From assembly GCA_963817955.1 (NCBI GenBank), contig CAWFQK010000003.1, positions 192,001 to 256,000 on the forward strand: a stretch of DNA of 64,000 nt. Reading direction: 5' to 3'. Of this stretch, positions 44,171-64,000 are shown piece after piece (position 1 is the stretch's first letter; each line of letters starts with the position of its first letter). The notes beneath the pieces were generated by a model, which made no database searches, had not been told where the DNA came from, and worked only from the letters and a program-made list of their open reading frames with translations. The position numbers and the translations under genes were made by a program. This stretch comes from an uncultured Gemmatimonadaceae bacterium (GTDB lineage Bacteria; Gemmatimonadota; Gemmatimonadetes; Gemmatimonadales; Gemmatimonadaceae).

Positions 44171-44180
44171 CGCACGCGAA

Positions 44181-44201
44181 TTAGTAGCAACTTGCTAATA
44201 A
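44181..44201. promoter_or_regulatory. 21-bp palindrome, putative NrtR operator
   Basis: TTAGTAGCAACTTGCTAATAA, 10 bp upstream of the regulator's ATG. Confidence 0.65.
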
Positions 44202-44229
44202 AGTCAAGTCCGCGTACGTACCGGCTTCT

Positions 44230-46089: not shown

Positions 46090-46361
46090 TCGATCGTCCC
46101 CTTCTTCGTCGTATCGACGTCTTCTTCGCTGCCCGTCTTGAACAGGAACGCCTCCATATTCTGCTTGAGAAAGGCGCGTGCCTGCGGGTCCATGACGTTC
46201 AGCCCATAGTGGTTGATGAGCATGGTCTGCTGTCGAAGCCACAGGCCCCAACAATCCTGGCAGATATTCTCGGCCACGCGTTGGCCGATGGCGCCGGGAA
46301 AGGGCATTCGGTCAAACCCAAGCTTTGTTTGGCCGCAGCGGGAGCAGGTGATGTCGGTCAT
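46083..46361 (-). CDS. Fe(II)-trafficking/oxidative damage protection protein (YggX family)
   Basis: PFPG.IGQRV..NIC..CW..W...QTMLIN motif. Confidence 0.9.
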   Translation of the reverse strand: MTDITCSRCGQTKLGFDRMPFPGAIGQRVAENICQDCWGLWLRQQTMLINHYGLNVMDPQARAFLKQNMEAFLFKTGSEEDVDTTKKGTIEW

Positions 46362-46390
46362 TGGGATCCTCAGGTGTCCCGAAATTTAGT

Positions 46391-46422
46391 GACACGGGAC
46401 ACGGGACACGGGACACGGGACA
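46391..46422 (+). repeat. Heptamer tandem repeat (GACACGG)x4.5
   Basis: gacacgg gacacgg gacacgg gacacgg gaca. Confidence 0.85.
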
Positions 46423-46433
46423 AGCGCGGCGAC

Positions 46434-48485: not shown

Positions 48486-48497
48486 GCGGTTCTCCTT

Positions 48498-48640
48498 GGG
48501 ACACGGGACACGGCGACGAGACACGGGAGACGAGTTGCCTTACTGTTCGGAGTTGGTGGCGGGGATGACTCGGTATCCGTTAGCAAAATGTATTCGGGCG
48601 CATTCGTTCGCGTGTCCCGTGTCTCATGTCTCGTGTCTCA
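48498..48640. repeat. Inverted pair of degenerate GACACG(G/A) heptamer arrays
   Basis: gggacacgggacacgg...gagacacgggagacgag (48498-48534) and cgtgtcccgtgtctcatgtctcgtgtctca (48611-48640). Confidence 0.75.
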
Positions 48641-48642
48641 AA

Positions 48643-49806
48643 ATGACCAGCCGCTCTCGAATCACTCGCTTGGAGTCGGCGCCAAGCGTCGACGGTAGCC
48701 AGCTCCGCGCCACGGCGGCGGGCACCGCGCAATACTGCAGGCGTTTCCTGTCGCGGTTCTCTCCGGACTATTTCAGAGCGACCACCTTCGGGGTGACGGT
48801 TTCGTCGATCGGTCTCGGAACCTATCTCGGCGAGAGCAATGCCCAGGACGACGCTGCGTACGACGCTGCGATCGGGCGCGCCATTGAGTCGGGGATCAAC
48901 ATCATCGACTCGGCGATCAACTATCGCTGCCAGCGGTCGGAACGTGCGGTGGGCGCAGCACTTCAGCGTGTCTTTGCCGCCGGAACCCTGTCCAGGCAAG
49001 AGCTCGTCGTGTGCAGCAAGGGCGGATACATCCCGCTGGACGGCAATCCGCCCGCCACACGAGAAGCATACCAGGCCTACGTGCGGCGGGAGTTCGTGGA
49101 TCCGGAAATTCTGCATGCCGACGACATCGTCGCCGGCGGGCACTCCCTGGCTCCGCGCTTCCTGCGCTATTGTCTGGCGAAGAGTCGCCAGAACCTGGGG
49201 CTCCGGACGATCGACGTCTACTACATCCACAACCCCGGCCAGCAACTGGTCAGCGTAGCCCCAGAAGACCTCCGCGAACGCATCCGCGGCGCCTTCACGG
49301 TGATGGAAGAGGCGGCGGGACGTGGCGAGATTGGGGTGTATGGTTGCGCCACATGGGACTCACTCCGGGTGCCACCGGGCGAGAAGGCGCACCTGTCACT
49401 CGAAGACCTGGTGGAGTTGGCGCGCCAGGCAGCGGGGGGCGCTGACCACCACTTCCGGGTAGTCCAGCTACCGATCAACCTGGCGATGGTCGAGGCGGTT
49501 CGAGTGCCGACGCAGAAGCTTGGCGACAGGATGGTGACGGTGCTCGAGGCAGCGACGGAGCTGGGATTGACAGTGGTCGCGAGTGCGGCGCTGATGCAGG
49601 CCCGTCTCGCCAGTGGACTACCGGACCAGCTTCGGGAGGCTTTTCCCGATTGCATGACGGACGCACAGCGGGCAATCCAGTTCACGCGGACGCTGCCGGG
49701 TGTGACGACAGCGCTCGTCGGGGCGAAACAGGCCGATCACGTCGATGAGGACATTCGCTCAGCGCGAGTGACGGAAGAGGCGCCTCATTCGTCATATCGG
49801 GCGTAA
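48643..49806 (+). CDS. Aldo/keto reductase family protein
   Basis: SSIGLGT, NIIDSA.NY, SE, CSKGG and IDVYYIHNP motifs. Confidence 0.88.
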   Translation: MTSRSRITRLESAPSVDGSQLRATAAGTAQYCRRFLSRFSPDYFRATTFGVTVSSIGLGTYLGESNAQDDAAYDAAIGRAIESGINIIDSAINYRCQRSERAVGAALQRVFAAGTLSRQELVVCSKGGYIPLDGNPPATREAYQAYVRREFVDPEILHADDIVAGGHSLAPRFLRYCLAKSRQNLGLRTIDVYYIHNPGQQLVSVAPEDLRERIRGAFTVMEEAAGRGEIGVYGCATWDSLRVPPGEKAHLSLEDLVELARQAAGGADHHFRVVQLPINLAMVEAVRVPTQKLGDRMVTVLEAATELGLTVVASAALMQARLASGLPDQLREAFPDCMTDAQRAIQFTRTLPGVTTALVGAKQADHVDEDIRSARVTEEAPHSSYRA

Positions 49807-49859: not shown

Positions 49860-49914
49860 CGTTACACTAGTCGGTCCAGGTGTAACGGCTGGATAATGGT
49901 GTAGCCATTACTAT
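49860..49914 (+). promoter_or_regulatory. Direct-repeat activator motif, copy C, with -10-like TACTAT
   Basis: GTTAC(49861), GTAACGGC(49882), ATAAT(49893), TACTAT(49909); aligns with the copies at 60526 and 60675. Confidence 0.6.
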
Positions 49915-49987
49915 GCGCCCTGTTCCCGTGCCTTCGTCGGGCCTAACGCGGCGATGACGTCGCGAACGTAACATTGAATAGGTGACC

Positions 49988-50668
49988 ATGATGCTGAAGA
50001 CTATGACTCCCGCGCGCCGCCGCGCTGGTTTCACACTGATCGAGACCATCGTCACGGTGGGTCTCATCGCGGTGCTCGCCGCCTTCGTGATTCCATCGGT
50101 CATTCAAAAGGCCGGCGCGGGCGATCCGGTCAAGGTTCAGAACGACCTGAACACGGTTCGGACGGCAATCGAGACCTTCGCCACCGACACCAAGGCAGGA
50201 TTTCCACATCAAATATCGTTGTTGACCTCCAAGCCAGTCGCGGCGACCGATCACCTCATCGACAGCACCCTGATTACCAGCGGACAGGTGTCGCTCTGGA
50301 ACGGTCCATACCTTGGGGCGACGATCTCTTCGACAGTCAAGGACAGCATCGCCACTGGCTATACGGCGTACATCCGCAATTTCATCGACCGCTACGACAT
50401 CGTGAATAATGCCGCGGCTCACGATACGCTGGGTGTAGTCAATGTGGCATTTTCGGCGACGAGCACGCTCTTCGCAGCAATACGCATCGACGGACTGACC
50501 GTCGCGCAGGCAAAGGCGATGAACACGTTGTTCGACGGCGCAAACGACGCGAACCTGGGGGACGGATCGAATACGACCGGCCGGTTCCGCTTCCTCGCTC
50601 CGGCGCTGACGGGTCCTCAAGCCAACCAAGTCGTCGCCTACTATATGGCTGCACCGATCACCCAATAG
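49988..50668 (+). CDS. Prepilin-type (GspG-like) pilin 1
   Basis: RRRAG/FTLIE plus hydrophobic helix; WNGPYL; NTLFDG; several possible starts (49982-50003). Confidence 0.88.
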   Translation: MMLKTMTPARRRAGFTLIETIVTVGLIAVLAAFVIPSVIQKAGAGDPVKVQNDLNTVRTAIETFATDTKAGFPHQISLLTSKPVAATDHLIDSTLITSGQVSLWNGPYLGATISSTVKDSIATGYTAYIRNFIDRYDIVNNAAAHDTLGVVNVAFSATSTLFAAIRIDGLTVAQAKAMNTLFDGANDANLGDGSNTTGRFRFLAPALTGPQANQVVAYYMAAPITQ

Positions 50669-50677
50669 GCGCACACC

Positions 50678-51394
50678 ATGGTCAGCGAGCTGCAGGACAG
50701 CATGGTCGACATGCGCGCGTTGCGCCAGCGGCGTGGCTTTACCCTCATCGAGACGATCGTCACGGTAGGACTGATTTCCGTGATGGCGGCGTTCGTCGTG
50801 CCCTCTGTACTCAAGAAGGCCGATGCCGCAGATCCGGTGAAGGTGGCGACCGATCTGAACTCCATCTCAACGGCTATCCAGTCGTTCGCGTCAGACGTCA
50901 AGGGTGCTTTGCCTGGGGATCTCGAAGATCTCACCGATCCGTTGATGACCAACGGGACGTGCAACACGATCAATCCGTGCGATTCCACGGTTACGCACGT
51001 CAACATCTTCACGGTTGCGCAGGCGGCGCTCTGGCGTGGACCGTACTTGCAGGCGTCGATTGGTCCGAGCCCAGATGCGGCGATTCGTAGCGGATATGTG
51101 GCAGATATCCACAATACCCTGGTGCGCTACGATGCCACGAGCGGGGTGCCAGAGTGGTGTTCCGGCATCGGAACACAGCTCGTCCCTTGCGCTGGATTCA
51201 TCGTGACGAATCCACTGTACGTAGCGGTGCGGGTGGACAGTCTCAATCTTGCCCAGGCGCTGATCGTCAACAACATCATCGACGGACCAAACGAGGCGCA
51301 GCCAGGCTTGCAGGGACGCTTCCGGTTCCCCACGCCAGCGTCGCCAACGGCTTTGGCGACACCGGCTTACTTCCTGGCTACGCCGGTGCCGTAA
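50678..51394 (+). CDS. Prepilin-type (GspG-like) pilin 2
   Basis: QRRG/FTLIE; WRGPYL; two Cys pairs; NNIIDG. Confidence 0.88.
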   Translation: MVSELQDSMVDMRALRQRRGFTLIETIVTVGLISVMAAFVVPSVLKKADAADPVKVATDLNSISTAIQSFASDVKGALPGDLEDLTDPLMTNGTCNTINPCDSTVTHVNIFTVAQAALWRGPYLQASIGPSPDAAIRSGYVADIHNTLVRYDATSGVPEWCSGIGTQLVPCAGFIVTNPLYVAVRVDSLNLAQALIVNNIIDGPNEAQPGLQGRFRFPTPASPTALATPAYFLATPVP

Positions 51395-51480
51395 CAGTGT
51401 TTGCCGAGAATTAAAGATTGCGGGGCCGAGAGCCGATACTCAAATGTTGGTACCCGGCCCCAGTTCGTATCAGGGATACG

Positions 51481-51531
51481 AAAAGTGGCACAAAATGCTC
51501 CTTGCAAGAGTTGACATTTAGTGCCACTCTT
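51481..51531. promoter_or_regulatory. 17-bp inverted repeat overlapping TTGACA upstream of the large lipoprotein gene
   Basis: AAAAGTGGCACAAAATG vs CATTTAGTGCCACTCTT (15/17 match); TTGACA at 51511. Confidence 0.45.
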
Positions 51532-51725
51532 TAGCCTGGTGGGAATGCTTTTGGCACCGATGTAGGTGCAGCACGAAGTTCGATCGCGCGTGGCAACGCT
51601 GGCCGCGCGTTGGGCAAATCAAATTTGTGACATGGATGGCGGCGCGAATCTTGTGTTCGTTGCCGATGTGTTCGCGCTGTTTCGGCACTCTGCCGTGAAG
51701 TATTTCTTTGGACGAGACCTCGACG

Positions 51726-54700
51726 ATGATCTCTCTCCGGTCGTTCGCTTCCTCTACGGTTCTTGCGTGCGCTGCGCTGCTGGTCGCAGGCTGTACGGAC
51801 GGCCCAATGGGCCCCCTGAGCGCAACGCGTCAGGCGGGCAAGGCGAATTTCGACGGGAAGGTCGGTAGCACTGGCAATTCCGCCAAGAACGGCTCGATCG
51901 ACGTGCGCGTGCTGCTCGACAAGAGCGGCGGCGCGGTGCTCGAGATCCGTACCGGCACCTTTGACGACGCCACGAATACCGGAACGCCTAACGGCTACTT
52001 CCAGAATGTTCAGTACAAGGTGTATGACGGGTCAAAGAAGCAGGTGCAGGTAGAGAACGTCAAATTCAAGACCGACGGAACCACCAAATACGTCACGTCG
52101 ATCAACCTCTGCTCCACGAATGAAGATGAGGAGTACGACGACCACAACCACGACCACGACCACGACCACGACCGCGACCACAACCATGAGAATCGCACGC
52201 CGTCGTGCGCAAAGACGTTCGGCGCCGGCTGGACCGTGTCTGTCCAGGCGAATCTCAAGGGCGTCGGCGGCGACGACAAGAAGACCGACGTTGTTCGCGT
52301 CGATGGAACGCCGGTGTATCTCCCCGACGTCGACCTGACCAAACAGGGCATTTACGTTGTTGGCGCCGACGGATCGCAGTCGCCCGCATCGCAGGTGACA
52401 CCTGGCGTGGCAACGACGTACTCCGTCACGATTCCCAACAACAAGCCTGTGCTTGGCTTGCCGAACAGCGTTGGCGTCGTCACGACGTGCGCCGTGTCCG
52501 TCGATGGCATCACGCAATTCGCACTGCCAACGTCAGGTTTCGGCAAAAGCTCCAATCCGAACCTGTTCAGCTATGTCGGCAGCGGCACGCAGACGATCGC
52601 CGGTGGAGCGAGCGCCCCCTGCCAGTTCACGCTGACATTGTCAGCCGGCAAGCACACCGTCAAGGTGACCGCAGTCGTTCTGTATCCCGGCGATTACGAT
52701 AGTTTGAACAACAGCACTCAGGCGATCACCGTCACGGCGGTCTCCGGGTCGCCGGACATCGCGGCCGGCGTGCTGCAGGCCGACATCGGGAACGGACAAG
52801 TACAGACTCTCGACAAGACGATTTACGCGGGTCAGTCGCTCAACCTCGACCAATGGGTGTCGCTCGTCAGCGGCGCTCCGCCGGGAACCGTGACGTGCAC
52901 CCTGACGATCACCAATACCGCCACGAACGCCGTTACGACGGCGAGCGGCTCCGTGGCACTGACGTCGGGCGATGCCAAGGCTTGCGCGATTCCGTACAGC
53001 TTTGCAGCGGCAGGCACGTACTCGGTGACCAGCGTCGTCATGCCCCCGTCCGGCGTGACCGATCCAGTCCTTGCCAACAATACCGCGACGAATACGGTCA
53101 CGGTGAGCGTGGCTGTCGCATCGGCGAATGTCGTCGTCAGCAGCCTCGCGTTCACGGACGCCGCGGTGAACGCGACGACGCAAGTATTCTCGCCGTCATC
53201 AAATCCAGCGGCAGACACCATTCATTCTGGCGACGTCGTCACGTACGCGGCGACGGTCAGCGCGAGCAACTTCCTGAACGCCACGTCGGTCCCGTCAGTC
53301 ACCTGCACGGCAACGGACAACGGAACCGACATCACCAAGTCCGTTACGTGGATCAAGCAGGCGGTGGCGAGCTTGGGGACGAGCGCCCAATCGTGCAGCT
53401 TCCAGTACACGATCACCGAGAGCGACGTGAATTCGTCGCACCCGCATACGATCGGCGTGTCGGTCTCGACCGGGAATTTCACCAATACCGCGACGACCAA
53501 CGCGACCGGCACGGGAACGGTCACGATTCCGGCGGTTTCCCCGCAGGCTGCGGTCGTCGTAAGCCAGCTGTCGTTCACGGATGCAGCCGAGCACATCACG
53601 TCGCGCGCCTTCTCGCCCACCGCCGATCCAACGGCGGATACCGTACACTCGGGTGACGTGGCCAGGTACGAGGCAACGATCAGCGCCACGGGCTTCCGAA
53701 ATGCTACGGCCGTGCCGGTGACGTGTTCTGCAACGGTGGATGGAGTGAGCGTCACGTCCGGTTGGGTTACGCAGACGATCAGTCTTGGTACGACGCCGCA
53801 AGTGTGCAGCTTTACGCGCGCGATCACTGAGACTGACAATCTGATGCACCCGCACAACATCCAGTTCTTCGTCACGACCGGCACGTTCGTGAACACGGCG
53901 AAACCGGCAGATACGAGCCGGCTCGGTGTGATCAATGACTACCGACGCGTGGATGTTTCGGTGGGCGCGCTTCAGTTGCTCAATGCGAGCGGCAACCCGA
54001 TCGATCTTTCAAAGAACGGTGTGCAGCAAGGCGCGACGGTAACGTTGCAGGTTCCGATCACGAATCTCGATCCGACGACGGCAACGTCGGTGAACTGCGG
54101 TATCCTCTCGAACGACACCGGCGCCCCTATTACCACATTCGCGTTGCCGTCTGCGGACATCGTGGCGAGCTCGCTCAGGCCGGTGACGCTCACCACCACC
54201 GCCATCACTCTGGCGGCGAATGGCACCGGCGTATGCCAGTACAGCGTTACGGCACCGACCGACCAAGGCCTGATTTCAATCCCGCTGGTTGCGTTGGTGA
54301 CGTCCACGACGGATAGTCCGCCCGATCCCGATCCCCGGAACAACGCATCGTTCGGTAGCCTGACCGTCGTCAGCAGCGGCGCGTTCACGAATGTGGCCGG
54401 CGGCGTCTTCAGCCTGGCGCAGGAGTGGACAAATCCGTTCACCCCGGCGTCTGATTGGCCGGTGGTTGGCACGCTCGACAACCAGAACTTTAAGGCGTCT
54501 CAGCTCTCACTGCTGGTCGTGCCGACGAAAAATATTCTGGGAACGTTCGCGCTGAGCGGAACAGTGATTAGTGGCCCAGCCACTGCACCCGTCACGTTCG
54601 GCACCGGGACGCTTCCGGCGGCCGAGCTTCGTGCTTCGACCGGACCGGGCGATACGCCGTGCATCACCATCGGACCGTTGGCTCCGCTCGGCAACGCCGG

Positions 54701-55019
54701 CGAGCCAGAAATCAAGTATTTCGCACAGGTCTGCGCGACGCAGGCGCCTCAGGACGGTTTCCAGGCGATCTTTGTGAACTACTCCCAGTCGATGCAAGGG
54801 CCGCTGGCGCCGACTCCGACCACCCTGTTCTTCACGAATTCGGTTGTGATGAAGATCCGGCTTGATTTCACGCTTACAGGCAGCACCATTGCGGATAAGG
54901 TCACCGCTACTATTACCGTGCCGGTGATTACGCTAGCCGATAATTGCGGCCCCAACCAGGGTGGGACCGCAAATGCATGTTCGACCACCTTCGGAGCCCC
55001 CACGGTTTCGACCCCGTAA
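51726..55019 (+). CDS. Large Thr/Ser-rich lipoprotein with ~5 Ig/CARDB-like repeats (putative adhesin)
   Basis: Lipobox LVAGC; repeated TC...C.F beta-sandwich units, several ending in D...NN; His-Asp loop. Confidence 0.75.
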   Translation: MISLRSFASSTVLACAALLVAGCTDGPMGPLSATRQAGKANFDGKVGSTGNSAKNGSIDVRVLLDKSGGAVLEIRTGTFDDATNTGTPNGYFQNVQYKVYDGSKKQVQVENVKFKTDGTTKYVTSINLCSTNEDEEYDDHNHDHDHDHDRDHNHENRTPSCAKTFGAGWTVSVQANLKGVGGDDKKTDVVRVDGTPVYLPDVDLTKQGIYVVGADGSQSPASQVTPGVATTYSVTIPNNKPVLGLPNSVGVVTTCAVSVDGITQFALPTSGFGKSSNPNLFSYVGSGTQTIAGGASAPCQFTLTLSAGKHTVKVTAVVLYPGDYDSLNNSTQAITVTAVSGSPDIAAGVLQADIGNGQVQTLDKTIYAGQSLNLDQWVSLVSGAPPGTVTCTLTITNTATNAVTTASGSVALTSGDAKACAIPYSFAAAGTYSVTSVVMPPSGVTDPVLANNTATNTVTVSVAVASANVVVSSLAFTDAAVNATTQVFSPSSNPAADTIHSGDVVTYAATVSASNFLNATSVPSVTCTATDNGTDITKSVTWIKQAVASLGTSAQSCSFQYTITESDVNSSHPHTIGVSVSTGNFTNTATTNATGTGTVTIPAVSPQAAVVVSQLSFTDAAEHITSRAFSPTADPTADTVHSGDVARYEATISATGFRNATAVPVTCSATVDGVSVTSGWVTQTISLGTTPQVCSFTRAITETDNLMHPHNIQFFVTTGTFVNTAKPADTSRLGVINDYRRVDVSVGALQLLNASGNPIDLSKNGVQQGATVTLQVPITNLDPTTATSVNCGILSNDTGAPITTFALPSADIVASSLRPVTLTTTAITLAANGTGVCQYSVTAPTDQGLISIPLVALVTSTTDSPPDPDPRNNASFGSLTVVSSGAFTNVAGGVFSLAQEWTNPFTPASDWPVVGTLDNQNFKASQLSLLVVPTKNILGTFALSGTVISGPATAPVTFGTGTLPAAELRASTGPGDTPCITIGPLAPLGNAGEPEIKYFAQVCATQAPQDGFQAIFVNYSQSMQGPLAPTPTTLFFTNSVVMKIRLDFTLTGSTIADKVTATITVPVITLADNCGPNQGGTANACSTTFGAPTVSTP

Positions 55020-55038
55020 GCTGCGCCGCGCACTTCGT

Positions 55039-55079
55039 AACGCGCCATCGACTCGGATCGTCTGAGTGATGGCGCGTTT
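55039..55079 (+). terminator. Stem-loop after the lipoprotein gene
   Basis: AACGCGCCATC/GATGGCGCGTT and ACTCGGA/TCTGAGT arms; only a short T run. Confidence 0.5.
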
Positions 55080-55104
55080 CGCGTTCCGTACCCGCGTGTA
55101 CATC

Positions 55105-55732
55105 ATGAAGCGTTCTCATCGACTTGGTCGCGGCTTCACCCTGATGGAGGTTGCTGTCGCCGCCGCCATCTTGGCGATGCTTGCCGCGGTAACGTCTCCG
55201 TACCTCGTTGAGTTCATCGACAAGCAGCAGGCCCAAACGACCGCAGACAAGCTCGCGGCGCTCGCCGCAGGCGTGGCTGCCTTCGAGAACAATGTGCACT
55301 CCGGCGCCGCCGCCACGGCTCTGACGTATCCTGGACGCATTGGCGAACTGGCAAACGCCATCACTGCCTCGAACGCGTCATACCGTAATAGTTGTGGGGT
55401 TAACTTCAACGCGACTGCCGTCACGGGCTGGAATAGCTTTGGCCCATTCGTAACGTTCTACGTCGACAGCACCAACGGCTACAGCACGCCGCTTGGCATG
55501 GTGAGTGATGCAATGGTCCGCAATCCGACCACCGCGAACGGCAGCAGCACGGGCGCCGGCACGTTGGCCCTTCGCATGATTGCGATCGACTCTTCCGATG
55601 CCGTCGATCTCGATCTCATCGTTGACGGTGGCGATGGCGGTGCCTCAGGTGTCCTCCGCTACACCATCGGCACGACGACGGCACATATGGCCGACGTGTC
55701 GTATTTCATTCCGGTCGCGGACCAAGTGCTGA
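55105..55732 (+). CDS. Prepilin-type pilin 3 (fused in frame to pilin 4 as given; probable true end ...ADKC* at 55732)
   Basis: LGRG/FTLME; DLIVDG; AAG TGC TGA in the +1 frame at 55724-55732. Confidence 0.75.
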
Positions 55733-56295
55733 AACGCCGCCGCGCACAACAGGGCTTTACGCTCGCCGAAGTGCTCGTGGCCTTCGTGTTGATTGGCGTG
55801 CTCGCGGCCGTCATCGTTCCCACCGTTCGCGGCCGGCTGCAGTCGGGCTACGAGAGCGCCATCATCTCGGAATTCACCAACCTGTCGTCCGCCATCACCG
55901 CGTATCGTCAGGACGTCGGCAAATACCCACCCAGTCTCGATTATCTGTCGGCTCTCCGGACGCCGACGCCGTTAGATCGGTGCGGCATCGCGCTCAGCGC
56001 GAATGCGATTGCCTCGTGGCGCGGACCCTATACCACGCGCACCATTCCGATCGTCGGTGGCGGCGGCGGCTACATGTTCGCGTCAAAGGACACCATCGCC
56101 GATCTCATGTCAGTGAGCACCGCGCCAGTCGGCTTTTCGATCACGCTCAAGGGCCCCGACACGCTCACCGCTCACAACGTCGATCTTCAAGTGGATGGCG
56201 TCGCCAACGCGACCGCCGGCAATCTGCAGTGGACGGTCAACGGGGCGGACGTCTGGATCAACTACATCATTGCCACAAAATCCGGAGCCTGTTGA
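55726..56295 (+). CDS. Prepilin-type (GspG-like) pilin 4
   Basis: GTG start, KRRRAQQG/FTLAE; D.GKYP; WRGPY; DLQVDG; ends in Cys. Confidence 0.82.
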   Translation: MLKRRRAQQGFTLAEVLVAFVLIGVLAAVIVPTVRGRLQSGYESAIISEFTNLSSAITAYRQDVGKYPPSLDYLSALRTPTPLDRCGIALSANAIASWRGPYTTRTIPIVGGGGGYMFASKDTIADLMSVSTAPVGFSITLKGPDTLTAHNVDLQVDGVANATAGNLQWTVNGADVWINYIIATKSGAC

Positions 56296-56298
56296 TCC

Positions 56299-59200
56299 TC
56301 AGCGCCGGACGGCGCGCCCCGGAAGCTCTACCAGCAAGTCCGAAAGCGCGACAGTGCTTCCCGTAGCTCGCCCGCCAAGCCACAATTGCGCGGGCGTTGC
56401 CATTTCATCGCCAAGAAACTTGAGTGAAGAACGCCAGCGCACCTGACCATCCACTGAGAACGTCACGACTTGGTCGCCTCCGATCGTGATCTCGACCGTG
56501 TGGCTGTCGGCTGGACGGAACAGAGATACGGGCTCCGACGAAGTCTGCTGGCCCACCGAGTACATGAGAACGCCAGCCGCGCCGTCCCAGCTCACTGCGG
56601 CCATGGGCGCAAATCGCGGCGCCGCCCGATCGATCGCCGTCACATCGGCCAGCGGCACGAGTGCCATTGTTGCCGTGGCCGCCGACGGACGCCCGCTGAA
56701 TGGCGCAAACAGACGGGCGCGCACGTGCAGTCCGGAACGCAACTCGAGGCCTGGACGCAAGAGAACGCCGCTTTCCCATTCCATGTCGCCGTTCGGATAG
56801 ACCGCCCGCTTCGCCGAGCCGGCGATGACGCCCACGTACGGGAGTGGTGCGCCGAGCGGCAGCCACTGCGCACTCACGGTGCTGCCTATGAATTCATCGG
56901 TGATGTGAAGCCGCTCCGTCGATGTCACCGCGAGCGTGAGTGTGTCGGCGCGCCAACCAGGAAGCAATGCGACGACACGAACGTTGCCTACGGCGCGCCC
57001 GACGACTTTCAATCCGGCGGTGTTTCCCGTCCCCGGCGCCGAGTCGCTCAATGCAATTATGCCTGGGTCGAGCACCTTCCAGTCAGCAATCGTTCCGCTG
57101 ACGAGCGCTCCCGCAACGGAAACGGTGAATGCGGTCAGCCGCACCGTATCTCCCACGCCGAGCGCTGCGCTGCCGAGGACCCGGACGCGGTCGATGTACA
57201 CGCGCGCGGCCCCATCCCACCGTGCGATGCCGAACTGCCGGCCCGGCGGCGTGACACGGCGGGGTGATCCACCGAGCGTCGGCCGAACGTAGATCCCCAG
57301 ATCGCCATCTCGCACCGACTGGAATGCGAGCATGCGGCCATCGGGCGAGAACACCGCACCATCGTCGCCATTCCGATCGGAGACGGGCCACAGTCGCGCA
57401 TTGTCGAAATCGTATACGTAAAGACGCGGTCCGCCATTCCGTGTGCTCGTGAACACGAGCATCGAACCATCCGGCGACCAATTGATGTTGTAGTCATCAG
57501 CTGGATTAGCACTCAGGTTTCGTTGCTCCGAACCATCCGGTCTGCTGACGAACACGTCGCGCTGCCTCCCGGAGGTGGAGCGGGCCACCCACGCCACCCA
57601 TAAACCTGTCGGCGACCAGCGTGCTTCCGTCACGGTACGCGATGCAGACGTGTCGATTGGAACGAGCACATTGCGTTGGTCAATCGACGCGCGAAACAGA
57701 TCGGTGTCGAAGCTCCCGTCGTCGAGCGTGCGCGACCGGGACACCAGCAGCGACCTGCTGTCCGGCGACCAGGCGAGTGCCGTATTGTCTCCGGGGCCTG
57801 CCGCTATGATCAGTGTGTCATGCCGATCGGCGGACAAGACATACACCTCCCGTCCGCGAGTGGTAACCCGCTCGAGCGCGACGCGTTGGCGATCGGGAGC
57901 GACGATTGGTGCGAGCCAGGGTGCGCCGAGCGAATCAATCCATTGCAGCCCGGCGGCGTTCGTCGGAATCGGGACGAGCACACTGGCTCCCCGAAGCGCC
58001 CCAACGTCGGCGCGCAACTGATTCTGTCCGCGCGCGTCGCGCTCCGACACGATCAAGGTATCAGCCACGCTGCCCGCGGCCATTCGCGTGGTGACGGCGC
58101 GGCGAAAAGCCATACCGGCGAGGAACACGACGATCGAAATCGCGATTGCGCGAGCCCATTGCGCCCGAGTGGCCCTTTTCCGGACGGCGAAGGGAATGTG
58201 CGCGGTGGCGGACGTCGACGGCTCCGCTGTCTGCGCTGGCAAGTCGAGTGGCTCGACCACAACGTCAGGTTCGCTCGCCTCGACGGTCTCGACCGCCGGC
58301 GCCGCAGCCGCCTCCTCAGGCGACGGCAGGGCGAGTCGGCCGCCTCCAAACGCGACCAGCAGAGCGTCAATGTCCTGGCGTGCCGCGGCGTTCGGCGCAA
58401 AGGTCAGCGCGATGCCGAGTAGGCGCACGACCTCTGGAGAAGCTCCCATTGATGCCGCGGTGAACGCAGCCTTTCGTGCATGCGCGAACGCCTCGCGCGA
58501 TCTGCCGGCAACAGCGTAGAGCGCCGCGAGCTCAGAGTCGGTGCAATCCGGCTCTGCCGCGAGGGCATCCCCTGCCCACCCTGCGAGCAATGCTCGTCCC
58601 GCCAGTCCGCTGCCGTCCACGAGAAAAGACGTCGTCGAGTCGTGCGACACGACGTAACCATCGGATATCGCGCGCAGCAGTCCGACGCGCGTCAGGTCCT
58701 CCACGGCGTCAAAGGTCGCGCTCTCCGGAAGATGCGCCGCGGCAGCGAGCAAACGCAGCGAGGCGGTACGCTCAAAGAGAGACGCAGCAAAAAACACGCG
58801 TCGCTGTGAAGGCGACGCGCCTTGAAGTCGCGCCCACAACATGTCGCGCATCGATGCAGGAAGATCACTGGCTCCCTGACCAGCCGCCGCGCGCCGCGCC
58901 AGCTCGATGGCCGTGACCGGAACGCCCCGCGAAGCGTGGGCAATCCGCTCGACGTCAACCGCCGTGCGCGTTGCCTCTGGAAGCTGCTCGCGCACGAGCG
59001 TCGTCGTCTCGTCATGGGACAGCGGACCAAGCTCGATCCGGGTGTCGGGGCTCTGTTCATCGACCGTCGCCAGCTCGCGCAACCGTTCGATGGTTTGCTG
59101 TGCGCTTCGATCGGGACTGTAGGCGACGACAAATAGAATGGGCGAGTCGTGCAGACGGTGCGACAGATACGTCAACAGGTCGAGCGTCGAGCTGGATGCA

Positions 59201-60462
59201 TGCTGAGCGTCGTCGAGTAGCACGCAGAGCGGACGTTCGTACGCGGCGGCGTCGGTCAGCGCAGCGATGCCCTCGAAGAAGCGAATACGTCCGGCCTCGT
59301 CCTCCACTGCCGGCGCGTTCGGCAAATCGAACGAGTCTCGGAGCTCCGGCAGGAGCCGCGCGGCCTCCGCGAGCAAGTGCCGGCTTGCACCAGATATCCC
59401 CGACGCACGCACCAAGGGCCGGAGTGCTTCAGCGATGCTTGCATAGGGAAGGGCGCCCCCGGTCGTGGCCTCGTGGCCGCGAAGGACCTGCACTCCGCCA
59501 AGGCTGCGCACCCGATCGGCAAATTCGTCGAATAGGCGCGACTTGCCCATGCCCGGATCGCCCTCTACGAGAACCGTAGCTCCCTTTTCGGATCGCAGGC
59601 GCGTGAGCCGCGCGAGCATGCGTGAGATTTCGGATTCCCGTCCCACGAACGTGGCGACCTTGCGACCGTTGGCGGCGACTTCCGCCTGGGCGCGTGGCGT
59701 GTCTTTAGGGTTCCGCCGCTCGAGCCGCTCGATGATGGCGCGGATATTCGACGGAACCGGAAGGTCCAGCTCTTCCTTCAGGCGGGCCGCGTAGGCCTTG
59801 GCAGCTGCGAGCGCGTTGGCATGGCGTCCCGCAGTGACGAGCGTATTGACCTGAAAGACGGCCGCTTCCCCGTCGAATGGCGCCATGGTCGTGAGCCGCT
59901 CGGCGAGCTGGATGGCGTCGCGAATCCGGCCCGAAGCGACTGCCTGTTCACCGGCCGCAAGGAGGGCTTCCTCGAAATGCGACCGAAGACGCACTCGCTC
60001 GGCGTCTGCCCAGCGGTCGAAAGCCGACTCTCCCACCTCAAACGCCTCGAGGAATTCGCCGCCGTATGCGGCGATGGCGTCGTCCCACCGCCCGTCCTCG
60101 AACGCAGCAACAAAGACGTCGCGATCGGTGGCAAGTCCACAGTTTGGTGCAATGGCGACGTCGTCACGGTGTTGCGGGAGCACCTCGTCGCCCAATGCGG
60201 TGCGCAGGCGGTGGAGAGACTGGCGGAAGGCGTTGCGTGCCTTTTCTTCCGGGATCTCGCCCCAGAGAATGCTGATCAGCTCGTCGCGCCGGGATCGGCC
60301 GCGTACCGCGATGTATGCCAGCATTGCCAGAGACTTGCCTGGACCGAGTCCGGGCAGCGCCCGTCCGTCCTGCGCGGCGATGGCGGGCGAGCCGAGAAGC
60401 CGCAAGGAGTAGCGGGGTGGCTCGTTGGATGGTGGGTCTTGCGGCTGGATTGGCGGCGTCAC
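56299..60462 (-). CDS. SARP/BTAD transcriptional activator fused to AAA (STAND) ATPase, TM helix, PD40 beta-propeller, Ig-like and lectin-like domains
   Basis: LRLLG..RDELISILW..RQSLHRLR; W...ER BTAD; FVGRE, GDPGMGKS, LDDAQ; TM AIAISIVVFLAGMAF; WSPD repeats. Confidence 0.85.
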   Translation of the reverse strand: MTPPIQPQDPPSNEPPRYSLRLLGSPAIAAQDGRALPGLGPGKSLAMLAYIAVRGRSRRDELISILWGEIPEEKARNAFRQSLHRLRTALGDEVLPQHRDDVAIAPNCGLATDRDVFVAAFEDGRWDDAIAAYGGEFLEAFEVGESAFDRWADAERVRLRSHFEEALLAAGEQAVASGRIRDAIQLAERLTTMAPFDGEAAVFQVNTLVTAGRHANALAAAKAYAARLKEELDLPVPSNIRAIIERLERRNPKDTPRAQAEVAANGRKVATFVGRESEISRMLARLTRLRSEKGATVLVEGDPGMGKSRLFDEFADRVRSLGGVQVLRGHEATTGGALPYASIAEALRPLVRASGISGASRHLLAEAARLLPELRDSFDLPNAPAVEDEAGRIRFFEGIAALTDAAAYERPLCVLLDDAQHASSSTLDLLTYLSHRLHDSPILFVVAYSPDRSAQQTIERLRELATVDEQSPDTRIELGPLSHDETTTLVREQLPEATRTAVDVERIAHASRGVPVTAIELARRAAAGQGASDLPASMRDMLWARLQGASPSQRRVFFAASLFERTASLRLLAAAAHLPESATFDAVEDLTRVGLLRAISDGYVVSHDSTTSFLVDGSGLAGRALLAGWAGDALAAEPDCTDSELAALYAVAGRSREAFAHARKAAFTAASMGASPEVVRLLGIALTFAPNAAARQDIDALLVAFGGGRLALPSPEEAAAAPAVETVEASEPDVVVEPLDLPAQTAEPSTSATAHIPFAVRKRATRAQWARAIAISIVVFLAGMAFRRAVTTRMAAGSVADTLIVSERDARGQNQLRADVGALRGASVLVPIPTNAAGLQWIDSLGAPWLAPIVAPDRQRVALERVTTRGREVYVLSADRHDTLIIAAGPGDNTALAWSPDSRSLLVSRSRTLDDGSFDTDLFRASIDQRNVLVPIDTSASRTVTEARWSPTGLWVAWVARSTSGRQRDVFVSRPDGSEQRNLSANPADDYNINWSPDGSMLVFTSTRNGGPRLYVYDFDNARLWPVSDRNGDDGAVFSPDGRMLAFQSVRDGDLGIYVRPTLGGSPRRVTPPGRQFGIARWDGAARVYIDRVRVLGSAALGVGDTVRLTAFTVSVAGALVSGTIADWKVLDPGIIALSDSAPGTGNTAGLKVVGRAVGNVRVVALLPGWRADTLTLAVTSTERLHITDEFIGSTVSAQWLPLGAPLPYVGVIAGSAKRAVYPNGDMEWESGVLLRPGLELRSGLHVRARLFAPFSGRPSAATATMALVPLADVTAIDRAAPRFAPMAAVSWDGAAGVLMYSVGQQTSSEPVSLFRPADSHTVEITIGGDQVVTFSVDGQVRWRSSLKFLGDEMATPAQLWLGGRATGSTVALSDLLVELPGRAVRR

Positions 60463-60525
60463 GCGTCAGTTGATGAAGACTAGACGTAAAGTCGTAAACG
60501 AAACCACAACAGCATCTTGCGAGGC

Positions 60526-60579
60526 CGTAACACGCGAAAGGACAGGAGTAACGGCCAGCTAACGGTCGGGGGCGATAAT
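60526..60579 (+). promoter_or_regulatory. Direct-repeat activator motif, copy A, with -10-like GATAAT
   Basis: GTAAC(60527), GTAACGGC(60548), CTAAC(60559), GATAAT(60574). Confidence 0.65.
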
Positions 60580-60674
60580 ACCAGCGTATGCAGCAAACTG
60601 AAGCACGTACAGCAGGGGTGGACGGCAGATTCGGATGGCCCAAGTCTATGGTTTAGACGGCTATTTGCCACCTC

Positions 60675-60728
60675 CGTAACACGGCAGCCGTGAGCAGTAA
60701 CGGCGGCGTAACCCTGCACTCGTATGTT
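60675..60728 (+). promoter_or_regulatory. Direct-repeat activator motif, copy B, with -10-like TATGTT
   Basis: GTAAC(60676), GTAACGGC(60697), GTAAC(60708), TATGTT(60723). Confidence 0.65.
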
Positions 60729-60772
60729 CGTCTTTGTTGGATGGCAGTACTGAACAGTGACTGGGAAGGAAG

Positions 60773-61362
60773 ATGAACCTTCGACGCAGAAGCACGAGAC
60801 GGAAGACCGGATTTACCCTGCCGGAAATCATCGTCACCATCTCGCTGATCGCGGCACTCGCGGCGGTTGTGGTGCCGACGGTGATCAGTCAGGTGAAGAA
60901 GGGAGATCCATCTCGTATCGGGAATGATTTCCTCGCCGTGCGCGGCGCGTCGGAGCAGTTCCTGACCGACATACGGAAATACCCGAGTTCGATGTATCAA
61001 CTCACGAACGTCATCACGACGTCGCAAACGGGGCTCGTGGGTACGTCGATCGCGAACTATGGGCAGGCCGAAGTGAACCGCTGGCGCGGGCCGTATCTGA
61101 ATAAGGACAGCGCGGCCGCACGCATCACCGGCTACGGGCTGACAGATGAACATCAACTTCGATACGGTGTCGCTGGCTTCGAGCGGCGCTGCGAGCGCGG
61201 CGGGACAGAAGTATATGGTCATTGCGATTCCGATGACCGACTCGCTCTGCTGCTCTCGAGGTGGACCGCCAGTTCGACGACGGCGTGTTACTGACCGGTG
61301 CAATCCGGTATTTGAAAGGGGCGACAGACACGCTGAAATTTTTATTGATGCCTATTTACTGA
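60773..61362 (+). CDS. Prepilin-type pilin 5, interrupted by two +1 frameshifts (~61144, ~61248)
   Basis: RRKTG/FTLPE; WRGPYL; the reconstructed tail ALEVDRQFDDG...LKFLLMPIY* matches its paralogs. Confidence 0.75.
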
Positions 61363-61441
61363 GCCGATTGCGGCTCTGATGGACTTTTCGATTCCCCGCA
61401 GCAGGCAGTTCGTTCCCTACTCGACCCTTAGGAGAAGACAG

Positions 61442-62033
61442 ATGAAGAAGAACGTTCGTCGCGGCTTTACGCTGCCTGAGATCTTGGTGACGGTGACGGT
61501 AGTGGCGGTGCTCGCCGCCGTGGTCGTGCCGGCGGTGACGCAGTATGTGAGCAAGGGCGACGTCGCCAGCGACCCTGTCGGACATCCAGCAGGTACGCAA
61601 TGCGATTACGGCCTATATTGCGGATACACGTGTTAATCCCCACGTACTTTTACGATCTGACGTCGACCAGTAATGGCGTCACGGGGTACAAGGGTTCGTA
61701 TCTGGCCGCCACGCTTACTGGGGTAACTGGGGCGGGCACGTTCACGAGCGCGGGACTCGGAATCAAATTTGGTCCGAGTCTGGACGCTGATTAATACCAC
61801 CGGGGTACTTGACTACTTCGCTCAAGTTCCCGGATAACACTAAGTGCTCAGTTCTCTTCGCCCTGGACCAGGCGATTGATGGCGCCGGTGGCGTCACCTC
61901 CTCGGCGACGTCAGGGACCACGGCAACCACCGGTTCCCTCGTCTGGAGTGCCACCAATACCTGTAACACCAATCCAAACGGCACGATAACCGGCACTGAT
62001 GTCACGCTCAAACTTGTGGCGATCGGAACCTGA
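61442..62033 (+). CDS. Prepilin-type pilin 6, interrupted by 3-4 frameshifts (~61568, ~61641, 61783-61805)
   Basis: AGGAG RBS; VRRG/FTLPE; YKGSYL; tail C..LFALDQAIDG...C. Confidence 0.72.
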
Positions 62034-62049
62034 TCTGAGGCGCGCGATG

Positions 62050-62096
62050 TAAACGAGAGGGGCGAGCGTATGATGTACGCTCGCCCCTCTCGTTTA
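62050..62096. terminator. Perfect 21-bp inverted repeat, probable bidirectional terminator
   Basis: TAAACGAGAGGGGCGAGCGTA-tgatg-TACGCTCGCCCCTCTCGTTTA between convergent genes. Confidence 0.8.
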
Positions 62097-62107
62097 ACCT
62101 CACCGGA

Positions 62108-63815
62108 CTACTTGCCAATAATGATATGTCCAATCGCCATGATCCGTATTGGAAGGTGCTGACGCTCCAACTCAGGTTTTGTGACTACATGCACCGAGAC
62201 ATGTCGCGCTTTCATTGAGTCCACGAAGTTCCGCGGCAGCTGGTCCGCATTGAAGATCTTCGGCACGTCGCGCAAGAACGGATCGTTTCGCAGTAGCTGG
62301 CGTCCCCACATCACCTGATCTGACGGAAATACGACGGCGTCTGCCCGCAGCGACGCCATCCACTCGTAGCCGCGCCGGTACGGTCCAACGATGCGCTCGA
62401 CGCCATTTGCGCGCAGCGGGATCTGCGCCACGATCGTGATACCGACCGAGGCCAACACCAGTCTGGCGGCACGACGCCAGCCAACCGCGCGCGCCAGCAA
62501 CTCGGCGCCGATAGCGGCCAACAACGCCAGGTTGCCGAGCCCATCATACATGTATCTGTAGCCCCAACCCTCGCCTTGCAAAGGGCTAAGAAAGGTCCGT
62601 GCGATTACGATGAATAGCAGTGACGCAGCAGCATCGCGTGAAAACGTGTCGAGCCGCCGCCACCGGATTATCGCCGCCACAGCGAGAATCGTCACGATCA
62701 ATCCATTCCAGCTCGGGAATAAGTGCGAGGTCCATGGCTGAAGTCAAACGGACTTCGGCAGCCGGGATCGAAAACAGGTGAGCCGCGACGCCGGCCGTCG
62801 CGCTGGGAGACGCAAAGGTCGATGAACCTGGCGACGAGAGTCCCTGCATGTACCCATACCAGTACGAAAGCCCCAACAGGTACACGGCAGCGACGTATCC
62901 GAACACCGCGAACCGCTTGTCGCGCAAATACCGCAGGATAAAGACCGCCGCAAACAGACCATGCGGAAACGGACTGTGGACGCCAAGCGCAATCACGCCG
63001 ACCCATGGCAGCAATAGCAGGCTGGTGCGCCGGTTGTCGACGTACAACCAGAGCCAGACGAGCGACACGAGCAGGTGTGTCGGCATCGAGAAGAAGGTCA
63101 TCGACATGAACATGACCTGCGTCGATGTCGCGAAGAACAGCGCCGCCAAGTAGGCGCGCGCCGGCCGATCGGGCCACACCTTTCTCGCGATCGATGCCAC
63201 GAGGCAAAGCGATAGTGCCGCAATGACGGGTCCACCGAGCCGTCCAACGCCAGCGGCAATGAACGGCGCGTTGATGAGCGAGTGGAGCGGCAAGAAGCCC
63301 AATCGCCAGGTACAATCGGCTCCGGCAACGATCGACGTCGGCGTCAATGCGTTGATGTAAGGGCACCACGCTGCGGGAACCGTCGCAAAGGCGCGCCCCC
63401 GCGCGAATATCTGCGCTTGAAACCATGCCGAATACTCGTCATCGGCCAGCAGGTATCCGTGAAACACGAGCCGGATGCCCGCGTACACGACAACCAGCAA
63501 CGCGAGGGCGAGCAGGGCGATTCGCCACTGCTTGAATTCCCACTGTGGCACATCTCGCGGTATGTCGCTGTCGCCCGCTGCGGTCCTCAGAGTGAGCAGC
63601 ACCACGGCGGCAAAGGCCGCGACCAACAGCAATGCGGGCGCCTCTATCTTCACATACTGCTCAAAGAAGAGGCTGTACATCGTGTATTGCACGTTGTCGA
63701 CGACAGGGATGGCGAGAAGCCCTGCGCCTATAATGCCGAGCGTGCCGAAGCATGCCAGTCGAATAGCCGCGCGAGCAGACGGAACGTCCATCTGATCGCT
63801 GATTGGGACGGGCAT
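62108..63815 (-). CDS. Polytopic membrane glycosyltransferase (GT-C/ArnT-like), one frameshift at ~62716
   Basis: Many TM segments; ADDEYSAWFQAQIF acidic loop; GWGYRY; removing one base of the GGG at 62715-17 joins the two ORFs; GGAGG RBS. Confidence 0.65.
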
Positions 63816-63846: not shown

Positions 63847-64000
63847 CTACGGTTTCACGCGCGCATTGACGATCAATTCCGCCACCCCGCGCCCAACGCC
63901 GAACCGCTTCATGATCGCGTCCGCCGAGAGCGAGTCCACATTCACCGGCAATTGATAGAACACCACTGCCGGCACGCTTGGCACCTTGCTCGCCGAGTTG
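63847..64000 (-). CDS. 3' end of a gene with a helix-hairpin-helix-like tail (partial)
   Basis: LPVNVDSLSADAIMKRFGVGRGVAELIVNARE resembles a ComEA-type HhH; the stop position assumes another +1 frameshift. Confidence 0.35.
   Translation of the reverse strand, partial: NSASKVPSVPAVVFYQLPVNVDSLSADAIMKRFGVGRGVAELIVNARVKP

Follow-up and report, generated by a model that had tools for sequence, protein, structure and literature searches.

An MSH-like filament locus of the Gemmatimonadaceae with a putative transmembrane SARP-STAND regulator of its pilin genes

Genes and promoters of the locus

The window considered here is a 64,000-nucleotide stretch (G000:C3:192001-256000) of the 4.53-Mb genome, in 9 contigs, of an uncultured Gemmatimonadaceae bacterium. 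It carries six prepilin genes, a 1387-residue regulator encoded on the opposite strand and a triple direct repeat in the pilin promoters, and a pilus-type assembly operon follows directly beyond its end. The regulator, its operator and the pilin genes constitute a real and conserved module, and the locus as a whole probably encodes a type IV filament system resembling the mannose-sensitive haemagglutinin (MSH) pilus, furnished with its own one-component membrane regulator of the pilin genes. Unless stated otherwise, coordinates are those of the window, with the strand in parentheses.

49861..49914 (+): box A1, promoter of pilins 1-2; three heptamers (0/21/32), -10-like TACTAT 9 nt past the last heptamer; 19.7 bits with a 13-site matrix
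49922..49974 (+): box A2, a weaker tandem box; -10-like TAACAT 8 nt past the last heptamer; 17.4 bits
49982..50668 (+): prepilin 1; N_methyl; type IV pilin fold (AlphaFold2 model); possible alternative starts at 49988 or 49991
50678..51394 (+): prepilin 2; N_methyl; best NCBIfam model GspG, below cut-off
55105..55732 (+): prepilin 3; last codons (KC-stop) in a different frame
55726..56295 (+): prepilin 4; N_methyl; weak T2SSG match
56299..60462 (-): regulator, 1387 aa, from domain hits, alignments and a periplasmic model
60527..60579 (+): box B1; three heptamers, 8 nt, GATAAT; faces pilin 5, away from the regulator; 36.4 bits (training-set site)
60676..60728 (+): box B2, second tandem box 149 nt downstream; TATGTT; 36.6 bits (training-set site)
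60773..61362 (+): prepilin 5; three frame segments in the assembly
61442..62033 (+): prepilin 6; four frame segments in the assembly
G000:C3:256374-266210 (-), beyond the window: MSH-like operon (mshE-, G-, I-, J-, K-, L-, M- and N-like genes)

An earlier, sequence-only reading of this DNA had described six paralogous prepilin genes in three pairs and a single giant regulator on the opposite strand. Both descriptions hold, the six N_methyl genes all lying on the plus strand (starts 49982, 50678, 55105, 55726, 60773 and 61442) and the regulator on the minus strand. The gene order recurs in relatives as operon, pilins 6-5, regulator, pilins 4-3 and pilins 2-1. Pilins 3 and 4 form one open frame in this assembly and two genes in relatives, where pilin 3 is a separate gene ending in KC-stop. 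Besides pilins 5 and 6, a neighbouring gene for a membrane protein (described below as GT-C-like) is interrupted, in two segments. A rough screen of 138 kb of the genome covered by related proteins found 8 frameshift positions, and since 4 of them fall within C3:253.1-254.7 kb, the breaks are local; the cluster may be a badly polished patch or recent decay.

The regulator, its box and their co-occurrence

The N-terminal part of the regulator has the arrangement that characterizes SARPs, an OmpR-type DNA-binding domain (ODB, residues ~15-100) followed by a BTAD region (~105-250; profile match at 126-246, over cut-off), and residues 14-264 align across both with EmbR (E 1.3e-6) and AfsR. A STAND module with NBD, HD and WHD subdomains follows (~270-615; AAA_16 match at 271-445), then a helical arm, a predicted membrane helix (~770-790), a TolB-like propeller (~798-1085; PD40 repeats), an Ig-like domain and a ConA-like domain (~1183-1382). 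A homologue search returned 598 proteins at E <= 1e-30, and the conservation figures given here refer to the best 120 of these, 118 of which cover at least 92% of the query; the named relatives are Gemmatimonadota, chiefly Gemmatimonadaceae. Each conserved position of the recognition helix ARNAFRQxLHRLR, which aligns with that of AfsR and EmbR, is kept in 112-117 of the 120. The Walker A Lys (K307) is present in 115, the second Walker B Asp (D418) in 112, and the His and Asp of the HD latch motif (H607 and D608) in 84 and 82, respectively, the hallmarks of a STAND NOD thus being recognizable in the sequence of a region without a predicted structure. A 19-residue segment with hydropathy of at least 1.6 precedes the propeller in 106 of the 120 and is the highest peak of the protein in 105. 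Domain order, single membrane helix and intact ATPase signature are kept in most of these relatives, and on its hydropathy the regulator is predicted to be a single chain that has both a DNA-binding domain and a transmembrane segment.

The model of residues 788-1387 (mean predicted local distance difference test score, pLDDT, 93) matches TolB/S9-type propellers with Z 22.6 (root-mean-square deviation, rmsd, 3.0, 271 aligned, 8wt1) and Z 20.6 (rmsd 5.1, 260 aligned, TolB), and its residues 396-594 form a ConA-like sandwich (Z 16.1, rmsd 2.9, 170 aligned, lichenase). The domain between them consists of strands only and is read as Ig-like in the model; one relative matches Big_2 at E 1.7e-4. A fold shared with known structures shows no ligand for the sensor. 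Positions conserved in at least 95% of the 120 relatives number 30 in the propeller and 12 in the ConA-like domain, with none in the membrane helix, and the linker preceding the helix is variable and probably flexible. A sister family of ~890-930 residues (L052, L053, L054, L055; G059, G206, G398, G049) combines BTAD with the same propeller-to-ConA sensor end; no AAA hit was obtained in it and no pilin was seen within 1.5 kb of its genes. One such relative (L084:1420-6082, G270) shows a glycosyltransferase-1 match at the end of its frame and lies near polysaccharide genes, ~8 kb from Tad-like genes (CpaE, TadA, TadB and TadC-like; L084:13910-17167).

The box in the pilin promoters consists of GTAAC-type heptamers at offsets 0/21/32, followed by 8 nt and a weak -10 element. 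The direct repeat that the sequence-only reading had noticed before pilins 1-2 and 5-6 is borne out genome-wide: a consensus search of the genome puts sites 49861, 60527 and 60676 in the top three places, a ranking that is circular because the consensus was taken from the same sites. They again rank 1-3 (26.4, 25.5 and 24.4 bits; next 20.7) with an 11-site matrix from other genomes, a test that is only partly independent, its 11 training sites having been found via the window consensus; the best scores in three shuffled genomes were 20.9, 23.2 and 17.9 bits. A fourth, weaker box lies at 49922. Among distinct boxes picked on their heptamers alone, 57 of 65 have xAxxxT exactly 8 nt downstream of the last heptamer, and an upstream heptamer stands at 21 nt in 40 of the 45 boxes picked without regard to the first heptamer, and at 22 nt in none.

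SARP repeats are described as lying 8 bp from the -10 element, 11 or 22 bp apart, over the -35 element (PMC10936776), and the SARP PimR as binding three heptamers with 4-nt spacers (PMC5930380). The present box has this activator geometry, as had been supposed before, in that its 3' repeat lies 8 bp from the -10 and 11 bp from the neighbouring repeat; the further repeat stands at 21 bp instead of 11 or 22. No common -35 hexamer was found under the boxes, and a standard sigma-70 scan gave no promoter at them, as expected where a -35 is lacking. The assembly operon and the pilin genes appear from the sequence to form separate transcription units, with the triple box at pilin promoters only; in this genome none was found before the assembly operon (mshE), the GT-C-like gene, the adhesin-type lipoprotein gene or pilin 3 (best -7.2, -6.2, 1.1 and 0.9 bits). 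The regulon would therefore be the pilin subunits. Regions upstream of the regulator contain a box facing the divergent pilin in 35 of 37 cases and one facing the regulator in 3 of 37, on which count conserved autoregulation was rejected; the few regulator-facing boxes are probably mirror hits of the near-palindromic core.

Two variations on this arrangement were observed. In one subgroup (window 60527-60728; L001, L088, L097, L103, L135) tandem boxes stand 149-187 nt apart before pilin 5, the DNA between them being neither conserved nor matched in Rfam. At G599:C221:305-1227 (L156, L170, L177) there are three near-identical boxes, two inverted around a pilin gene and one facing the regulator, the inverted copies being either a real inversion or an assembly artefact.

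The sequence-only reading had proposed looking for the regulator beside pilin clusters in related genomes, and there the linkage is evident. Among 401 genomes of the family an mshI-like gene occurs in 27 and the regulator in 22, all 22 within the 27 and all with the MSH-like operon, and among 401 genomes of the phylum the nesting is likewise found, with nine mshI-like genes (one weak) and seven regulators (C-terminal part at E < 1e-40). A prepilin motif is present in 28 of 30 metagenome loci found via the regulator; among 42 control loci, which have other BTAD/AAA proteins, a prepilin pattern hit was obtained in three, one of which looks real. A box of at least 15 bits is present in 26 of 30 held-out metagenome loci, where 37 of 39 hits lie no more than 450 nt upstream of a same-strand prepilin, and no box hit occurs in the 728 kb of the 42 control loci. 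As for the four held-out loci without a box, the regulator starts at a contig end in three, and the fourth is a partial match without pilins. Searched over whole genomes, a strict box pattern matched 19 of the 23 that have the regulator and none of the 137 that lack it, the 160 having been picked by identifier and not drawn at random. Its matches point at a prepilin motif 61-247 nt away in 27 of 29 cases, the other two lying in one locus with inverted copies. Some loci are present twice across the collections.

The link between regulator and box is also visible in their loss. Five genomes of the family have the operon without the regulator; in two of them the contig ends before the pilins, and one was left out of the comparison. 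G689 (79% complete) and G648 (89%) each have a contiguous locus with the operon and four pilins, in which the regulator and pilins 1-2 are missing and no box reaches 12 bits, the absence lying inside the assembled locus. MshG and MshE trees (17 and 16 rows, limited to the loci available) place the two in separate clades with full or near-full support and regulator-positive sisters. As far as these sequences tell, loss of the regulator went with loss of the box in two lineages. A genome of another family, G039, has the operon and five pilins, no regulator orthologue and a best box score of 11.2 bits. In G648, an extended -10-like sequence, TGTGGTACGAT, was seen by eye before pilin 5 (L126:11455-11612), where regulator and box are gone, and is perhaps a replacement promoter.

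The assembly machinery and the nature of the filament

Past the end of the window, the minus strand upstream of the GT-C-like gene encodes an ATPase with MshEN and T2SSE domains, a T2SSF platform protein, a secretin, an AAA_22 protein, a tetratricopeptide repeat (TPR) protein and an STN lipoprotein; the genes in the positions of PilM/N, PilO and PilP are labelled mshI/J/K-like by position. The sequence-only reading missed this operon because it lies outside the window. The cyclic di-GMP (c-di-GMP) motif of the MshE-like ATPase scores well over its cut-off (62.3 vs 38 bits), and the best secretin model is TIGR02519 MshL, at 208.7 bits under a cut-off of 250.2 (GspD, 151.9 bits), with a weak Secretin_N_2 match. 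The mandatory genes of the published MSH model are given as mshA, E, G, L and M (Denise et al. 2019, PMC6668835). Judged by domain matches, mshE, mshG and mshM have counterparts in the MshEN and T2SSE, T2SSF and AAA_22 proteins of one operon; MshL is the best model yet under cut-off, and the pilins are nearest GspG. On these sequence profiles the machine is MSH-like and is not filed as an MSH member. The present locus resembles the msh locus of Vibrio cholerae (mshHIJKLMNEGF-BACDOPQ) in its MshEN ATPase with c-di-GMP motif, platform, secretin nearest MshL, MshM AAA protein and MshN TPR protein, and in keeping assembly and structural genes at one locus, but the order here is E-G-I-J-K-L-M-N and the pilins are large and, by hidden Markov model (HMM), GspG-like and not MshA-like.

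That last resemblance lends some weight to an alternative, unlikely as it is, in which regulation is as described and the filament is a pseudopilus like those of type II secretion systems (T2SS), exporting or displaying a substrate, for instance the large lipoprotein, instead of forming a surface pilus. Among NCBIfam models GspG comes closest to the pilins, with all GspG/H/I/J hits of the locus under cut-off, and a WxGPY-like motif, presumably a GspG trait, occurs in 117 of 144 pilins. The ATPase scores 520.8 bits with GspE vs 504 with PilB, the platform is nearest GspF, no PilT lies in the locus, and the model of pilin 1 (one of 6 pilins modelled; pLDDT 94) matches Shewanella MshA with Z 2.6 only. 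Against a pseudopilus stand the secretin, nearer MshL than GspD and bearing Secretin_N_2, and the MshM- and MshN-like genes that follow it. The locus also has no GspH/I/J/K-type set and instead five to seven large pilins. The best fold matches of pilin 1 are true pilins, Clostridioides difficile PilA1 (Z 8.6, rmsd 2.4, 107 aligned) and CofA (Z 6.8), ahead of EpsG (Z 6.2); Foldseek returned nothing at E <= 0.001 for this model. Other T2SS-like genes and genes like those of type IVa pili lie on contigs C6, C4 and C5, among them a T2SS-like cluster with its own GspG-like gene on C6, and the locus is therefore an additional system.

The remaining features of the region are the following.

51726..55019 (+): 1097-aa lipoprotein, putative adhesin, accessory; lipobox LVAGC
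62051..62095 (no strand): perfect hairpin of 20 bp where the pilin 6 and GT-C-like genes converge
62108..63815 (-): putative GT-C glycosyltransferase, a multi-pass membrane protein; accessory; its gene closes the assembly operon and has a frameshift near 62700
63847..64000 (-): gene for a small lipoprotein with an STN domain, 3' end only; the operon continues past the window

The lipoprotein and the membrane enzyme had been labelled Ig-repeat and GT-C-like, respectively, labels that no library confirmed, and the regulator had been supposed to switch on glycosylated (pseudo)pili and an adhesin. The lipoprotein has no Pfam or NCBIfam hit (a CARDB lead in Atlas, at 0.80 only), has no box of its own and is present as an adhesin-type gene in at least 8 of 22 regulator-bearing loci, these accessory-gene counts being lower bounds as some loci end early. 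The GT-C-like protein has no Pfam or PDB hit, a weak NF047440 match (E=0.0047) and homologues found in a search without annotation; it shows six hydrophobic peaks and, in an early loop, a DE that is invariant in 51 relatives and that we take to be the acidic motif of GT-C enzymes. Its gene lies on the strand opposite to the pilins, at the end of the assembly operon, and was found in at least 4 of the 22 loci; since it has no box and is accessory, switching on of glycosylation by the regulator is unsupported. Another subgroup (L075:1-12000 in G052, L078, L080, L101, L143) has O-antigen-ligase-like genes (Wzy_C + TPR) among the pilins, in at least 5 of the 22 loci with a weak sixth, and in G052 this gene adjoins sugar-nucleotide genes. 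Pilin glycosylation is plausible in some lineages, possibly via a different enzyme in the O-antigen-ligase subgroup, and would lie outside the conserved regulon. The STN lipoprotein was rejected as an obligate partner of the regulator because it is kept where the regulator was lost (G689, G039) and was not found in the regulator-bearing G540 and L099.

Further observations concern the surrounding DNA. The hairpin at 62051..62095 is probably a bidirectional terminator; it is missing from the output of the terminator scan. A long imperfect hairpin (51480-51532, z -2.46) separates pilin 2 from the adhesin; six loci show no visible conservation of it, and most of them share a GCCGATACT motif just past pilin 2. 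Near the N-terminus of the lipoprotein, at about 52110-52180, lies a His/Asp repeat, HNHDHDHDHDRDHNH, possibly a metal-binding loop, with an Asp run in the L001 relative. The flank at 43472-49806 encodes an NrtR-type regulator, a GH3 hydrolase, an Fe-trafficking protein, an M1 peptidase and an aldo-keto reductase, the last of which adjoins pilin 1 in 12 of the 22 regulator-bearing loci and marks the usual site. Rfam gave no match in the window and three loci, nor did plasmid records searched at E 1e-20.

A proposed mechanism and its relation to known systems

From this evidence the regulator very probably binds the box, and it is likely to act there as an activator of the pilin promoters; that a periplasmic signal is passed through the ATPase is somewhat favoured. 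SARP dimers on an 11-bp pair are reported to recruit RNA polymerase, with the NOD inhibiting until ATP binds (PMC10936776), and the HD latch of AfsR is assigned to H603/D604 (bioRxiv 10.64898/2026.09.02.748808). The SARP domain would bind the box and recruit RNA polymerase as AfsR does, with two protomers on the 11-bp pair, which covers the -35 region at a distance of 8 bp from the weak -10, and a third two helical turns upstream. The STAND module would hold the SARP domain off until nucleotide exchange, and a periplasmic cue on the propeller or ConA-like domain would release the latch via the membrane helix; in this least certain step a glycan or envelope ligand is the most likely cue, favoured because the sensor domains are conserved and the helix is not. 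Filament subunits would be made on demand, pilins 3-4 and the adhesin (where present) probably by read-through, and the machine would be expressed from other promoters, its ATPase probably gated by c-di-GMP. There is about an even chance that the regulator is, in full, a transmembrane NLR-type receptor that is itself a transcription factor, its extracytoplasmic propeller/lectin sensor tripping the STAND latch and its oligomer, on three phased sites, turning the filament subunits on.

Several observations weigh against this account. The HD latch is missing in ~30% of relatives, the 21-bp spacing of the upstream repeat departs from the SARP 11/22 rule, and pilins 5 and 6 are frameshifted in this genome. 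Strict pattern matches are missing from 4 of the 23 regulator-positive genomes, one of which (G540) has a 22.4-bit box by matrix; the positive count is itself partly circular, since boxes from many of those positive genomes went into the pattern and matrices, and related genomes are not independent; no such circularity affects the negative side. The loci without the regulator retain intact pilins and machine, so that the regulator is dispensable, and since the sister family carries the same sensor end without an ATPase, the ATPase is in principle not needed for the sensor to work. A SARP reported to repress a pilin gene, considered below, adds to these points.

The input might come from the system itself, as free inner-membrane pilin in the manner of PilS, or the cytoplasmic part might be freed by proteolysis, without an outside ligand. 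This would suit a regulon confined to pilin genes, PilSR being reported to autoregulate pilA via direct pilin contact (PMC6058289), and the probably flexible linker that precedes the membrane helix, through which the two membrane sides would be poorly coupled. It is nonetheless improbable, as conservation is concentrated in the propeller and ConA-like domain and spares the helix, and the sister family has the same sensor with no pilin seen nearby. A complex prediction for the periplasmic part with pilin 1 scored 0.03 against a mark of 0.32 and is evidence neither way.

Repression of the pilin promoters until induction, from the same boxes, has a poorer claim still. Boxes that cover the -35 region and the persistence of intact pilins and machine where the regulator is gone would agree with a repressor, as would Geobacter sulfurreducens GSU1771, a SARP reported to repress pilA in planktonic cells (PMC10599522). 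Against repression, the promoters lack a -35 consensus and have weak -10 elements, the fixed 8-nt gap is the AfsR activator arrangement, and pilins 1-2 were lost together with their box in G689 and G648, as expected if they had fallen silent. That the box is read in trans by another SARP paralogue, with the neighbouring regulator linked by history only, is very improbable, many though the BTAD proteins of these genomes are: G689 lacks a box despite 8 paralogue matches at E <= 1e-25, none of the 137 regulator-negative genomes matches the strict pattern, and in G131 a paralogue of 37% identity differs in its helix, has no pilins beside it and has no box scoring above 13 bits.

In its predicted cytoplasmic part the regulator is closest to AfsR and the other large SARPs of Streptomyces (PMC10936776), with which it shares ODB, BTAD and STAND ATPase (profile hit to AfsR residues 38-349, E 1.7e-11), direct repeats 11 bp apart and 8 bp from the -10, over the -35 region, and an HD motif at H607/D608 that corresponds to AfsR H603/D604 by position and motif only. 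It differs in that AfsR is described with a C-terminal TPR sensor, in place of which stand a predicted membrane helix and, in the C-terminal 600 residues, a predicted periplasmic sensor of propeller, Ig-like strands and ConA-like sandwich; and in that AfsR targets antibiotic production, whereas the presumed targets here are pilin genes, with a third repeat at 21 bp, in a diderm phylum.

ToxR-type regulators have a periplasmic domain in the same chain, as is predicted here; they are small and are not known to carry a STAND ATPase. Several use a ToxS/TcpH-type partner, none of which was seen in these loci, where no dedicated search was made. Transmembrane transcription regulators of pilin or fimbrial genes tabulated in one survey include ToxR/TcpP, PsaE, MyfE, PypB, WmpR and ArnR (PMC10269533, Table 1); like them, the present protein is predicted to join a DNA-binding domain and a membrane segment in one chain, and several of them control pilin genes, while the terms SARP, BTAD and PD40 are absent from the main text of that survey. 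For the msh genes of V. cholerae the regulators named are RfaH, VC1371 and ToxT (bioRxiv 10.64898/2026.09.27.754871), and, in that account, the locus has no embedded dedicated regulator, unlike the one described here. GSU1771 is another SARP-family regulator outside the actinomycetes that alters pilA expression. It differs in being a receiver-domain protein with a broad regulon and an effect on pilA whose direction varies with the conditions; the bound promoters that are listed do not include pilA, and the article describes no ATPase, membrane helix or periplasmic sensor (PMC10599522). PilS-PilR, of Pseudomonas and others (PMC6058289), is similar in that pilin transcription has a membrane-sensing control of its own, separate from that of the assembly genes; it comprises a two-component kinase and a sigma-54 activator, unrelated proteins acting on another promoter type.

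The sequence-only reading had known of no described pilus regulon of this kind. For this particular regulator and box that stands, no description having been found in the literature searched, which left out supplements (where the family could be listed) and most subscription papers; as a broader statement it does not, since membrane regulators of pilin genes and a SARP affecting pilA have been published. The same search found no bacterial example in which STAND signalling starts outside the cytoplasm and both operator and regulon are defined. In the text available, a STAND survey mentions SARP in one reference only (PMC13581612), and a survey of the phylum notes type IV pili and no regulators (PMC10581226).

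STAND and NLR proteins have been described as sensors in the cytoplasm, and SARPs chiefly as regulators of antibiotics; here the two are joined to a predicted periplasmic sensor, in a regulator that co-loss links to an exact operator and to a narrow regulon. With operator, DNA-binding domain and candidate latch all defined, transmembrane STAND activation becomes testable in a plain reporter strain. If the regulator is indeed a transmembrane NLR-type receptor, it would be a bacterial example of STAND signalling that starts outside the cytoplasm, with both operator and regulon defined. The locus would offer a regulatory handle on surface filaments in a soil phylum that is abundant yet hardly cultured, and would add to PilSR and the ToxR-type proteins a third way of making pilin on demand for a machine that is built separately.

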